A stretch of 64,000 nt of DNA from Eledone cirrhosa. Taxonomy: Eukaryota. A program made the translations under genes and the position numbers. The DNA lies in the NCBI GenBank assembly GCA_964016885.1, contig OZ024746.1, positions 83,266,001 to 83,330,000 on the forward strand, written 5' to 3'. This document shows, piece by piece, positions 9,510-26,441 of this stretch. The stretch's first letter is position 1. Every line of letters begins with the position of its first letter. Below the pieces are notes generated by a model. That model worked only from the letters and a program-made list of their open reading frames with translations. It had not been told where the DNA came from and ran no database searches.

Positions 9510-9722
9510 AAAGAAGAAATTAAAAAATGGTTAAAAAAGTTCCGTATATTTTATTATGCACATTTCGAAAACAACATCATCCTGGGACAAAAATTGGTTT
9601 CTTATCATGTTAGCTTATTTTATCTGATGAGAACACAATTTGTGTCCCAGGATGATGTTCTTTTCGAAATGTGCATAATAAAATATACGGAACTTTTTTA
9701 ACCATCTTTTAATTTCTTCTTT
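9510..9722. mobile_element. Fold-back element (~98-bp arms) between (TA)n tracts, carrying a hammerhead motif
   Basis: 9510-9607 is the reverse complement of 9625-9722 with a few mismatches. Confidence 0.85.
9616..9685 (+). ncRNA. Type I hammerhead ribozyme motif
   Basis: TATTTTAT-CTGATGA-G..stem II..C-GAAA-TGTGCA-TA-ATAAAATA. Perfect 8-bp stem I, intact core, short near-palindromic stem III, predicted cut after 9677. Confidence 0.75.
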
Positions 9723-10174
9723 ATATATATATATATATATATATATATATATATATATATATATATATATATATATATATATATATATATATATGTACAT
9801 ATACATGTACACTTACATATACATACATATATATATAGATAATAGATAGATAGATTAAATAGCTAGATATACACACGCGCGCGCGCGCGTGTGTGTGTAT
9901 AAATTGTCTTTCTAAAACAATTTTTGTTTCATTAAATTTTTTATTAAAATTAGGGCGATGGCTATTATCCATAATATATAATTATGAGTTTAGTGATTTT
10001 TATAAAACTGTATAATGGCTCCACGATATAAGTTTGGAAACCACAGCTCTCCCAGAAGACTATATATACCACATATTGGCTAACCTTAAATAAATATCTA
10101 CTCGTAGATATTATACATACGTACATATATATTCTACACGAAGACTTACTCATGGATGTTCTAAATACAGATTA

Positions 10175-11170
10175 ACTAAGATACACTACATGTAGACTTA
10201 CCATAGACACACTACATGTTCACTAATCCTAGATATGCCACATGTAGGCTTACAATAGACACACTACATGTTCATTAATTCTAGATATGCCACATGTAGA
10301 CTTACAATAGACACACATGTTCACTAATTCTAGATGTCACATGTAAATTTACAAAACATACGCTACATGTTCACTAATCCTAGATATGCCACATGTAGAC
10401 TTACAATAGACAACTACATGTTCACTAATTCTAGATGTCACATGCAGACTTACAAAACATACGCTACATGTTCACTAATCCTAGATATGTCACATATAGA
10501 CTTACAATAGACACACTACATGTTCACTAATCCTAGATATGCCACATGTAGGCTTACAATAGACACACTAGATGTTCATTAATTCTAGATATGCCACATG
10601 TAGACTTACAATAGACACACATGTTCACTAATTCTAGATGTCACATGTAAATTTACAAAACATACGCTACATGTTCACTAATCCTAGATATGCCACATGT
10701 AGACTTACAATAGACAACTACATCTTCACTAATTCTAGATGTCACATGCAGACTTACAAAACATACGCTACATGTTCACTAATCCTAGATATGTCACATA
10801 TAGACTTACAATAGACACACTACATGTTCACTAATCCTAGATATGCCACATGTAGGCTTACAATAGACACACTACATGTTCATTAATTCTAGATATGCCA
10901 CATGTAGACTTACAATAGACACACTACATGTTCACTAATTCTAGATGTCACATGTAGATTTACAAAACATACGCTACATGTTCACTAATCCTAGATATGC
11001 CACATGTAGACTTACAATAGACAACTACATGTTCACTAATTCTAGATGTCACATGTAGACTTACAAAACATACGCTACATGTTCACTAATCCTAGATATG
11101 CCACATTTAGACTTACAATAGACACACTACATGTTCACTAATCCTAGATATGTCACATGTAGACTTACAA
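10175..11170. repeat. ~52-bp minisatellite (two ~26-bp halves) with a 304-bp higher-order repeat
   Basis: Unit CACACTACATGTTCACTAATCCTAGATATGCCACATGTAGACTTACAATAGA. Marker GGCT recurs at 10247, 10551, 10855 and AAATTT at 10345, 10649. Confidence 0.95.
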
Positions 11171-11217
11171 AAAATGCACAAAATGAAGATTTACCCCTAA
11201 ATAAATGATATATACTC

Positions 11218-12363
11218 TTACCACAGATAAACTACACGAATACTTACACCTAGTTATACTACATGTAGGACTACTCCTGTACATACATGTAGACTAATCC
11301 TACATATATTACATGTGGATTAAACCTAGAATCAGTACAAGAAGAAGTAGCTCGTTCCAGTCAACCAGGGATAACTTCAAGTTGAGCAACAAAAACAAGA
11401 ATACAAACAAACGCAACATAATCTAACATCTGAAATAACATAACATAACATATATATGTACCACAATCGATTGGGTCGTAGAGATATCAGTGAAGACTTT
11501 GTCTATCTGTAGTATATTTTGGGTAGCTTTACATAAAGTGTAACGATAGTTAGTCTATGTATAGCATACCAGAGGTAAGTCTAGTCTATATGTGATATAT
11601 CTTGGGTAGCTTTATATATAGAGTATCAGTTGTTAGTCTACGAATGGTATATCTGAACTAAGTCTATTCTATATGTGATATATCTTGGGTAGCTTTATAT
11701 ACAGAGTATCAGTTGTTAGTCTACGAATGGTATATCTGAACTAAGTCTATTCTATATGTGATATATCTTGGGTAGCTTTATATACAGAGTATCAGTTGTT
11801 AGTCTACGAATGGTATATCTGAACTAAGTCTATTCTATATGTGATATATCTTGGGTAGCTTTATATACAGAGTATCAGCTGTTAGGGTTAGGGTTAGGTA
11901 TATCTGAGTTAAGTATAATCTGTATGTGATATATCTTGGGTAGCTTTATATATAGAGTATCAGTGGTTAGTATACGTGTGGTATATCTGAGCTAAGTCTA
12001 GTCTATATGTGATATATCTTGGGTAGCTTTATATACAGAGTATCAGTTGTTAGTCTACGTATGGTATATCTGAACTAAGTCTAGTCTCTATATGATATAT
12101 CTTGGGTAGCTTTACAGAAACAGTATCAGTGTTTAGTCTACATATGGTATATCTAAGCTAAGTTTTATCTAGTATCAATGACTACTCTGAGTAGTCATTC
12201 TAGTCTACATGTAGTGTATTTTGAACAAGAGAACATGGAATTTATCTGGAGCAAGTCATCTTGTACTGATTCTAGGTTTAATCGACATGTTGGATTAGTC
12301 TATATGTATGTACAGGAGTAATCCTACATGTAGTATAACTAGGTGTAAGTTTATCTATGGTAA
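11218..12363. repeat. ~120-140-bp inverted repeats (11218-11360 / 12245-12363) enclosing an 83-bp minisatellite
   Basis: CTTACACCTAGTTATACTACATGTAGGA...AAACCTAGAATCAGTACAAG versus CTTGTACTGATTCTAGGTTT...TCCTACATGTAGTATAACTAGGTGTAAG. Confidence 0.88.
11500..12165. repeat. 83-bp minisatellite, ~8 copies
   Basis: CGAATGG marker at 11641, 11724, 11807. One copy is interrupted by TTAGGG repeats. Confidence 0.92.
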
Positions 12364-23844: not shown

Positions 23845-24135
23845 GGCGAATTATTTAGTGCTCAGGGCCGTTCGGTTGACGATCCTAATGTCGTAGGTTC
23901 GATTCTTGAAGGCGCGTTGTATCCTTGAGAAAAATACATTATTTCACATTACTCCAGTTCACGTTGTTGTTTGCATAAATTGTAGCTGTAATTCAAAGAG
24001 TCAGCTTTGTCCCACAACTGTGTCATGCTGAATCTCCCTGAGAGTTATGTTCAGGAGTGCAGTTGTCTGTAGAATGCTCAGCCAATTGCACGTTAATTTC
24101 AAATCGACTGGAAAATTCATCGCTGGAGGGTATGG
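23845..24135 (+). mobile_element. Diverged tRNA-derived SINE with V-domain-like core
   Basis: B box GGTTCGATTC at 23896 followed by TTGTATCCTTGAGAAAAATACATTATTTCAC. Confidence 0.65.
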
Positions 24136-24215
24136 AGATCCATCAGCAACAGCAATACGCACACACATGCACACATGTATGTATGCATGTATATATGTGT
24201 GTGTATGTATGTATA

Positions 24216-24362
24216 TGCGGTACTGGGACTGTGTCAGAAGCACCTTGGCTTGCGCTAGAATTTCATCTGACGAATAGGAGAAAATGACTGAGGAGCGTGT
24301 GAAGTGGAGACGTTTGATCAAATCAGGAAGTGAACACTTTGAAACTCGCCGAAGAGAACACC
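24216..24362 (+). pseudogene. RTE-clade LINE ORF C-terminal relic
   Basis: RYWDCVRSTLACARISSDE*EKMTEERVKWRRLIKSGSEHFETRR resembles the RTE/BovB-type RYKD...W..LA.DR..WR...F end. Confidence 0.65.
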
Positions 24363-26321
24363 TATATACGTATATATATATATATATGTGTGTGTGTGTG
24401 TGTGTGTGTGTGTGTGTGTGTGTGTGTGTGTGTGTGTGTGTGTGATGATAGTTGGGAAGGCCAGATATAAATATTCATATTCTGTCATAATACATATTTC
24501 TGTGGCCTTCGTAATTACGTAATTCTGTCATCACGCAACCCTCAACACGACCTCATCATCAAACATCATTTTAAGTTATAAGGTAATACAATCTTCAAGC
24601 AGTACTACCTCGGAGTAGGCCCCTATATTTGCTATCCTCTCTGCATCCAGTTCCACACTGTACACACAAGGTAAAGTGTCTTACTTCTATGTCCGATGTT
24701 GACGTCATGAAATTCACGCCCTTTGTGATTACATTGAAATTGACACATCATATTTGTCATCTAGTCTATACGTCTGTGGCTTTCTATTTGGTTATTGTTG
24801 TTATTGTTGTCGCTGTTTTCAAATCTGGTGTTTTTGCACTATATTCTTATTGTTAGTTTTGATTGGGTGTTATACCTGTGTTCTGATACAAAGTAATTAT
24901 TTATTGCTTAGAGAATTTCATATTGTAGATCTTTCGCAATTGGGGAGGGAAAGTCCACATCTTAAGAACTAAATTACTCTTTTGTCTTTCAACATTACTG
25001 ATAAATTATATAAATAAAGGCGGGATTCGAACCATGTACTCGACCACTTATCCAATAAACTACTGCAAATGTTGATAATAGACAGAAATTGAGAAGTTTA
25101 GACTCCATTCAGAAACACAATAATCAGGCTTTAATTAAAGTAATTAACTAACAATATATTGAAGCGACTTTTCAGAATACTTTCACCCGACATCATCAGA
25201 TAATTTGACACTTGTGACCGGTCACTGTGAATAGACAGTTTTAGCTGAAAATACAAAGCAACAATAGCTTATTTATGACTTGTGGTTTTTGTCATTACCA
25301 TTGTCTCTACTACATAAACAGGTTTGTAATTCCTCCTTTTTATAAACAGGTTACCTTTGATCATCATTACAATATTTCAAACATTGTCCATTGTCTTCTG
25401 AAAACCATCAGCAATGTAAACATGCCATAATTATAATTTCTAAAAGTTTTAACAATTCATTTATGAAACATTAAAAACTTTTGCTTAATTAAAAATATTC
25501 AAGAGAAAAAACATGGAATACAAATAGAATTGTTATTAAAACTAACGGAAATGAACATGATTTAAATTCTTTCTGATGATGTATTTGAATAACAAAATGC
25601 ATTAATAGTAAATAATTGTTTCTACTTTAATTGGTGAAATTGAGATAGAAAGAATGAAATGGTCGGCAAAAGTGAGACAGGGTGATTTATGTATACATTG
25701 CTTTTTATATAGAAGAATAGATGACTCAAATTATCAATGAAATATGTATATATAATTGTTTATCTGTGTTGTAATTACAGACATCATTGACACACAATTA
25801 GGCATAATACAGAACACATTTACCAGTCTAGAGTTACTGTAGAGCATGTACTTAAAGTTTCCTCCACATTGCATCATGGAGGCTAGCAATGGAGTGTGTA
25901 TGTGTGTGGATGTGTATATATATATACACACACACATATATATATATATATAAAGGTCTATTTCTTACTCGCTCATATATTCACACAGCTTATGCTGACA
26001 GAATAACCATGTTGCTTGTGTTTCTTTCCATCTTCGGTTAGCTTTCCCCTGTGTTGTTTACTTGTCTTACTAACTTTACGCGTTTCAATTGTCCTAATAA
26101 CTTATTTTAGTTATTGTCGCACCAACGTGAGGTATATGATTTTTAATGCGATGAAATACCAATGATCGTTGGCAAATCACTGATGAGGGACTCATTTTAT
26201 AACATGTAATCCATGTGCAACCATGCAGTATTCTTCTCCCCATATTTTCATATATATATATATATATATATATATATATATATAGAAAGATTTGAATGGA
26301 TACAGTTTAGTTGAAAGGAAT

Positions 26322-26441
26322 TTATTGACACGTGTTTCTATAACAGTTACATAACCTAAAACAGCTGCTATCTACAAACTTTTAGTTATGCAGACATTCA
26401 ATATTTCAATGTTATTATTTACTGTCATTTCATCAGAATAA
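26322..26441 (-). ncRNA. Type I hammerhead motif with long stem II
   Basis: TTATT-CTGATGA-a-ATGACAGT..~73 nt..ACTGTTAT-a-GAAA-CACGTG-TC-AATAA. GUC cleavage triplet, palindromic stem III, A.A at the base of stem II. Confidence 0.68.

Follow-up and report, generated by a model that had tools for sequence, protein, structure and literature searches.

The 64,000-nucleotide stretch of the Eledone cirrhosa genome analyzed here (contig OZ024746.1, positions 83,266,001 to 83,330,000, forward strand; hereafter the window) contains a series of short islands with hammerhead-ribozyme motifs, most of which border on (TA)n tracts. We consider it quite probable that five of the island families (A–E) are 3' ends of Penelope-like elements (PLEs) inserted in (TA)n, and that two further repeats, F and F2, carry a covarying, permuted predicted ribozyme likely inherited from the Naiad branch of PLEs. 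The type I hammerhead islands, which had been pointed out in an earlier reading of the sequence (the original prediction), belong to known PLE biology; the motif of F and F2, absent from the sites listed in that prediction, is a new hammerhead variant.

All parts of a hammerhead are present in F and F2, with GAAA placed upstream of CUGAUGA, in the order II'-P0'-III'-UH-I'-II''-GAAA-III''-P0''-I''-CUGANGA. The subfamilies share one spacing, II'-P0'-3 nt-III'-UH-I'-about 3 nt-II''-GAAA-III''-6 nt-P0''-I''-CUGANGA. The copies in the window are as follows.

21134..21408, plus strand: family F, a 5'-truncated copy of a non-coding tandem unit of about 625 nt, with (TA)n at its end
21288..21358, plus strand: F permuted hammerhead; II' 21288-93, P0' 21294-99, III' 21303-07; H17 21308, predicted cut 21308/21309; I' 21309-15; II'' 21319-24, GAAA 21325-28, III'' to 21332; P0'' 21339-44, I'' 21345-51, CUGAUGA 21352-58
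25952..26249, plus strand: family F2, a 5'-truncated copy of a non-coding tandem unit of about 532 nt, with (TA)n at its end
26116..26186, plus strand: F2 permuted hammerhead; II' 26116-21, P0' 26122-27, III' 26131-35; H17 26136, predicted cut 26136/26137; I' 26137-42; II'' 26147-52, GAAA 26153-56; P0'' 26167-72, I'' 26174-79, CUGAUGA 26180-86
1210..1339, plus strand: third copy of the superfamily, a 5'-truncated fold-back, GAAA to CUGACGA at 1294; outside 9510..26441

The non-coding units carrying the permuted motif are 530–780 nt long, hold one ribozyme motif each, and stand in tandem at 4 of 20 F loci and 9 of 24 F2 loci; arrays of five units also occur. No family-linked PLE open reading frame (ORF) lay within 1.5 kb of F or F2 in 74 loci. 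It is thus F and F2, not A–E, that are the non-coding tandem families of the region. The segment 26845-26915 resembles by eye a decayed permuted-hammerhead end like that of locus L227, a resemblance not confirmed by BLAST.

A family-blind descriptor requiring a cleavage site, GAAA, and CUGANGA in this order returned two matches in the region, namely F and F2 (mean 0.003, maximum 1 in 300 shuffles), and picked up in addition, at locus L076, a diverged family with identical spacing and different stems. First-look candidates numbered 2100 for F and 2632 for F2, and exact patterns detected 13,138 + 708 = 13,846 copies genome-wide versus 1 + 3 for the reversed patterns, many of the copies lying in the non-coding tandem units. 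Pattern matches in metagenome (10) and viral (2) contigs, whose stems mostly fail, were treated as chance. Covariation was assessed in 15 rows chosen by hand from 86 distinct rows for an intact 5' part and equal spacing; set aside were 5'-truncated copies, near-identical repeats, the metagenome and viral matches, and subfamilies with a linker 2 nt shorter, which fit after a shift. In these chosen rows, 91.1% of 360 cells are paired versus 74.2 ± 1.4% after shuffling (0 of 500 shuffles), a comparison that kinship among rows can win without any structure, and 15 of 24 pairs show changes on both sides (5 of 500 shuffles), with slid controls giving 30–46% pairing. All four helices covary, the double-changed pairs comprising six in stem I, three in stem III, five in P0, and one in stem II. 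CUGANGA, GAAA, U16.1-A15.1, and H17 are in register with stems I and III; U16.1-A15.1 is kept in 15 of 15 rows, H17 is never G, and N7 is variable.

The assignment of stem II to the upstream strand is supported by pairing energies of -3.0 to -9.9 kcal/mol for II' versus -1.0 or worse for the bases following CUGANGA (five of five copies). A conventional stem II after CUGANGA was ruled out, as the bases there do not pair with those before GAAA, and so were the type I, II, and III readings (circularly permuted, without pseudoknot), the order of the parts being S, G, C. Single-strand minimum-free-energy folds, which cannot show pseudoknots, recovered P0 and III for F2; for F they gave an alternative fold. 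An Rfam scan of three loci with the permuted motif reported no hammerhead and matches driven by microsatellites only. Taken as a whole, the F-type motif is well supported as a conserved structure, and its predicted fold is that of a self-cleaving ribozyme.

The layout is best compared with that of the non-circularly permuted type-SGC hammerheads, which cleave and, in the accessible text of Eckert 2023 (PMC10085705), come from metatranscriptomes and from no known organism's genome. The SGC-2 oligonucleotides described there consist of a 5-bp stem I, a 3-nt linker, a 5-bp stem II, P0'' directly before I'', and, past I'', CUGAUGA-U-II'-G-P0'. Like type-SGC and HRIMA-1, the F motif runs from cleavage site to GAAA to CUGANGA with a linker of about 3 nt from stem I to stem II; as in type-SGC, stems I and II are joined by a helix at their distal ends, P0'' stands immediately before I'', and the helix and linker lengths match those of SGC-2. 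Unlike in SGC, the cleavage block is preceded on its 5' side by II' and P0', which in SGC come after CUGANGA, and block C is split, an arrangement excluded by the block model and descriptors of PMC10085705; moreover, the F motif occurs in about 14,000 copies in an animal genome, whereas SGC is recorded there from metatranscriptomes only. Moving II'-P0' of SGC-2 to the 5' end gives the F motif, which is thus, judged by its letters, a circular permutation of SGC opened in the core between A9 and 10.1 (bulged 9.1). It is predicted to work like SGC, yet is not classed as such, because block C is not intact. Neither the F-type arrangement nor a Naiad hammerhead was reported in the literature searched, with subscription journals largely outside it.

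According to the accessible text of Craig 2021 (PMC8557442), Naiads are without canonical hammerheads, with only 'HHR_core', 'HHR_half_core', or nothing recorded. The Naiad consensus file of that paper was searched with four CUGANGA words and selected ends were read by eye (words split across lines being missed), and the permuted layout was seen at the 3' ends of Naiad_Bfor, Naiad_Amil, Naiad_Aacu, Naiad_Anas, Naiad-2_Movir, Naiad_Obim, Naiad_Ovul, and Naiad_Esco, and probably also, by assignment from the file order, of Naiad-3_Chem, Naiad_Plae, and Naiad_EuTe. These make up 11 of the 54 consensus entries, about eight of them independent. In the Naiad examples G10.1-C11.1 is supplied by the upstream strand, and the stem II sequences differ (GGCUCC/GGAGCC, GACACC/GGUGUC, and GGGGA/UCCCC). 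By eye, F2 and two Octopus Naiads have in common, immediately before II', a hairpin whose 8-nt loop is the same. Many genomic subfamilies have a small hairpin behind CUGANGA, which was not seen by eye in the Naiad examples. F and F2 thus resemble the Naiad PLEs in their (TA)n bias, in their inverted and tandem structure, and in the permuted layout of these consensus ends, and differ from them in encoding no protein. In the host genome only decayed Naiad-like 3' ends were found, in agreement with the remark in PMC8557442 that cephalopod Naiads are remnants. The F-type motif is likely an overlooked, predicted self-cutting RNA of one Naiad branch, the Naiad parentage of F and F2 resting on the published consensus ends. 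The bivalve and hemichordate Naiad 3' ends (PMC8557442, File S5, as far as it was accessible) contain no CUGANGA and have a different conserved motif in common, so that Naiad lineages seem to swap ribozyme-like motifs.

Several points weigh against this reading. In addition to the hand selection and the kinship of the rows, 7 of the 15 rows came from a pattern fixing GCGNYGAAA and CTGANGA, by which core letters were partly imposed; stem II is the weakest helix in the host genome, with double changes in one pair only; and the 10.1-11.1 pair is formed in 8 of 15 rows and is C-C in the window's F copy. The break between CUGANGA and stem II may itself kill activity, because adjacency of the two was assumed by Eckert (PMC10085705, accessible part). 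Among the accessible Naiad consensus entries, stem I of Naiad_Bfor is only 2 bp and stem II of Naiad_Esco is imperfect, the permuted motif was not found at the ends of Chem-1, Chem-2, Movir-1, and the bivalve and hemichordate entries, and the nematode entries have type I-like cores. A search for an autonomous Naiad in the host genome yielded no ORF (four pattern matches, three DNA matches, and zero endonuclease-motif matches). Finally, for a Poseidon PLE, the accessible part of PMC11167929 reports hammerhead cleavage to be dispensable for insertion in vitro and the start sites of reverse transcription not to be homologous to the target.

Some of these points would suit a motif that folds as drawn and is catalytically dead or weak, serving as a structural signal for binding or initiation by the reverse transcriptase (RT): the core has a break at A9/10.1, 7 of 15 rows lack the 10.1-11.1 pair, the Poseidon element can dispense with cleavage, and minimal PLE hammerheads cleave poorly. 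We regard this as unlikely, however, since the invariant U16.1-A15.1, an H17 that is never G, a free N7, and a G10.1-C11.1 kept in Naiads across phyla form the pattern expected from selection for catalysis. Somewhat less likely still is a ribozyme working only between neighboring units, as dimer or circle, in the manner of the minimal type I PLE hammerheads, with one unit supplying the CUGANGA strand and the following unit the cleavage and GAAA blocks. The tandem arrangement of the F and F2 units would permit it, and P0'' adjoins I'' without a linker, a geometry that Eckert also found hard to place; but stem III of the F-type motif is not palindromic, and SGC ribozymes in which P0 and I adjoin in this way are able to cleave as monomers (PMC10085705, accessible text).

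The islands of the original prediction were searched with a type I descriptor containing no family-specific letters (CUGANGA, stem II, GAAA, palindrome, UH, stem I). It gave four matches in 9001-27000 versus none in each of 300 block-wise dinucleotide shuffles.

9624-9677, plus strand: type I hammerhead, family-blind match
13218-13245, plus strand: type I hammerhead, family-blind match
13916-13964, plus strand: type I hammerhead, family-blind match
13796-13748, minus strand: type I hammerhead, family-blind match

A fifth type I hammerhead, on the minus strand, consists of CUGAUGA at 26436, a hairpin stem II of about 90 nt, GAAA-CACGUG-UC, and a 5-bp stem I at 26326-26322, and was missed because its stem II exceeds the length limit of the descriptor. 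Five of the sites claimed to be complete hammerheads are thus intact; the remaining one, at 21545, fails the descriptor, as a single G>A change breaks its 10.1-11.1 pair (the first pair of stem II), and it is not independent of the hammerhead at 13218, lying in a local duplication of that region. Of the two motifs called decayed, that at 20857 is so in the window copy (GAAG) and has GAAA in 19 of 20 family copies; that at 25573 is unsupported and was rejected, having no GAAA/stem arrangement and no repeat copies among 231 loci, and lying outside a TA tract. The suggested check with Rfam hammerhead models reported none in the window at E ≤ 1, with only microsatellite-driven matches. In dimer cofolding, the palindrome pairs between copies for families A and C, and for family B this pairing is not the lowest-energy form. 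Lunse et al. in 2017 are said to have dealt with dimeric PLE hammerheads. Type I hammerheads with 50–95-nt stem II and 6–8-nt palindromes occur in several families (26285-26684; loci L092, L083, L158, and L027), and hairpins of this length cause ordinary descriptors to miss them.

The families to which these motifs belong occupy the following positions, the 3' ends being those of pseudo-long-terminal-repeats (pLTRs).

9421..9721, plus strand: family A, Hydra-clade PLE 3' end; hammerhead CUGAUGA 9624, predicted cut after 9677; inverted tail about 9421-9510, inverted cut-short arm 9511-9607, sense arm to 9721
13134..13335, plus strand: family B, Neptune-like PLE 3' end; minimal type I hammerhead 13218-13245
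13564-13623: inverted 3' fragment of family B
21461..21662, plus strand: second copy of family B (local duplication); hammerhead at 21545, 10.1-11.1 pair broken
13696..14104: family C, Hydra-clade PLE; inverted pair of pLTR ends, 13696-13836 minus strand and 13870-14016 plus strand, tail 14017-14104; hammerheads 13796-13748 minus and 13916-13964 plus
26285..26684, minus strand: family D, Hydra-clade PLE 3' end, very young; CUGAUGA 26436, predicted cut after 26327
20760..20975, plus strand: family E, Neptune-like PLE 3' end; hammerhead 20857-20884, GAAA>GAAG in this copy

Families A–E are dispersed, with first-look candidates of at least 723–1464 each, a 3' end that is constant, a 5' end that varies, and inverted partners in many cases; family D has 40 identical matches on one chromosome. 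Longer copies of each of the five extend upstream into PLE coding sequence, so the flagged islands are 5'-truncated pLTR ends of coding PLEs, many of which have an inverted partner and carry a tail, and not retrozymes. The link to PLEs and the palindromic stem III put forward in the original prediction accordingly hold, whereas its view of non-autonomous, retrozyme-like families is wrong for A–E. The ORFs upstream of A, C, and D contain DKT, CxCX5C, GIY-YIG, CxxC, and CxH, with RWK in A and D and RWR in C. In translations of loci L081/L082, L083/L084, and L181, a GIY-YIG endonuclease (EN) stands C-terminally, behind the RT, and, by eye, CxxC and CxH replace CCHH and the CxCX5C linker is present; the N-terminal piece of family A was taken from L082, where it is located past the pLTR after a TA run. 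Tandems of pLTR, tail, ORF, and pLTR are spaced at 4263/4231 bp in C and 3564 bp in D. In B and E, the RT and a CX4CxxC linker precede, by eye, a C-terminal GIY-YIG with CCHH. A Pfam search of 6 + 2 PLE peptides matched no families, Pfam containing no model that fits.

Judged by motifs read by eye and not by a tree, which is a further point against the reading given at the outset, A, C, and D fit the published definition of the Hydra clade and B and E are Neptune-like. For the Hydra clade, hammerheads and (TA)n insertion have already been reported, with Hydra-1_Obim listed from octopus (PMC8557442, accessible text). A, C, and D, which combine a type I hammerhead with (TA)n insertion, share with that clade the C-terminal GIY-YIG, RWK, DKT, CxCX5C, the type I hammerhead in the pLTR, inverted 5'-truncated copies, and a tail. 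They differ from what the accessible text gives in the units of C and D (3.6–4.3 kb versus generally <3 kb), in the tails (about 90–110 nt versus 30–40), and in the stem II of family D (about 90 nt). B and E show nothing materially different from the minimal type I hammerheads of Neptune and Poseidon elements (Cervera and de la Pena 2014, PMC4209133, accessible part), with which they share a short stem I, an extra base at 9.1, and a palindromic 2-nt stem III insert. A further PLE family with C-terminal EN is present at L084:6336-7500 and L085:6808-8000, with a type I hammerhead whose stem III palindrome contains tandem G-A pairs.

The observation that the islands are mostly bordered by (TA)n is borne out as TA targeting. 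Counting best-hit copies only, with those of the window included, 33 of the 165 loci of the seven families run into their own tail or the next unit; at the other 132 element 3' ends, (TA)4+ occurs within 16 nt in 118, (CA)4+ in 9, and neither in 5, whereas random positions show (TA)4+ in 10% of cases within the same loci and in 9% within the window. The bias is common to the type I and the permuted families. A local duplication in the window (13100-13548 to 21426-21872; 14104-14783 to 21660-22330) allows filled sites to be set beside empty ones: copy 1 alone contains the C pair and a long interspersed element (LINE) at 14783-20574, copy 2 alone contains F, and sites without an insertion consist of plain (TA)n or (ATAG)n, the duplicate TA tract at 21660 lacking C. 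Insertion into pre-existing tracts is the simplest reading of these sites. In A, C, and D, the two 3' end points each lie on 3–7 nt of TA-like sequence of the continuing unit.

Besides the dispensability of cleavage, the accessible part of the Poseidon study (PMC11167929) reports that the PLE protein sets cleavage at AT-rich DNA and that reverse transcription begins at two internal sites defining the tail. Because of these results the choice of TA is probably set by the protein, and it is more likely a property of the protein than of the ribozyme or of an RNA circle. It is very improbable that, as originally supposed, all islands are non-autonomous and retrozyme-like and reach TA tracts through self-cleaved or circular RNA. 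The predominance of short islands and the non-coding tandems of F and F2 agree with that view, but it is already contradicted for A–E by longer copies with RT/EN coding sequence, the 3' ends of the islands lie downstream of the hammerhead cleavage sites, and the TA bias is alike in the type I and permuted families.

With moderate confidence, we propose in more specific terms that an active split-core SGC permutation is the missing ribozyme of one branch of the Naiads (in ctenophores, cnidarians, molluscs, and probably rotifers and arthropods) and that it drives here a non-autonomous, TA-targeted, circle-forming family of 14,000 copies. In the predicted mechanism, transcription through tandem F-type units would give unit-length RNA cut after H17, whose 3' end (II'-P0'-III') would pair back onto the 5' end of the same molecule by three helices with about 16 bp between them. 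Such re-docking would favor ligation into circles and may be a better set-up than that of type I, where stem I alone joins the ends; in type I retrozymes ligation is mostly by RtcB (PMC7229834, accessible text). A PLE RT/endonuclease, probably of the Naiad type, would then act in trans to nick (TA)n, and copying, which may start 50–100 nt downstream of CUGANGA on dimers or circles, would at the nicked tract produce tandem and inverted 5'-truncated insertions. The choice of TA would likely come from the endonuclease/linker, perhaps aided by 3–7 nt of TA microhomology, and not from the ribozyme. F and F2 resemble the non-LTR retrozymes (PMC7229834; bioRxiv 10.64898/2026.07.22.740005; accessible parts) in being non-coding tandems with one ribozyme motif per unit and, probably, in their derivation from PLE pLTRs. 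Those retrozymes have a type I hammerhead and units of 150–450 nt, whereas the F-type motif is permuted and its units are 530–780 nt.

The F-type motif breaks the assumption of descriptors that CUGANGA adjoins stem II, and standard searches therefore miss it (Rfam here; RNAmotif in Craig 2021). The proposal, if true, corrects the published claim that Naiads lack hammerheads, which has been used to argue that the ribozymes are dispensable passengers of PLEs. It would also move non-circular RNA permutations from anonymous metatranscriptome contigs to animal genomes, with thousands of natural variants, and, in cellular genomes, the motif would be the first high-copy ribozyme with a non-circular permutation.

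The first half of the window consists of microsatellites and retroelement debris in a host genome of 3.0 Gb, and 32424-64000 is taken up by one 20-bp satellite, arrayed over 31.5 kb and strongly skewed between the strands, to which repeats at locus L176 are related. The LINE interrupting the duplication has the following structure.

14783-20574, minus strand: LINE, near full length; ORF1 18469-20400; ORF2 14998-18468 with APE, RT, and zf-RVT

It sits in an (ATAG)n tract, the duplicate tract at about 22280-22350 being without it, and near-identical pieces are found at loci L180 and L068. We take it to be possibly a member of a GATA-repeat-targeting Tx1-like family. A diverged partial relative of its ORF1 region (75–79%) lies at 27376-29300. 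The minisatellites at 10188-11172 (52/101-bp) and 11501-12163 (83-bp) are related, in roughly opposite orientation, with a shared flank between them.

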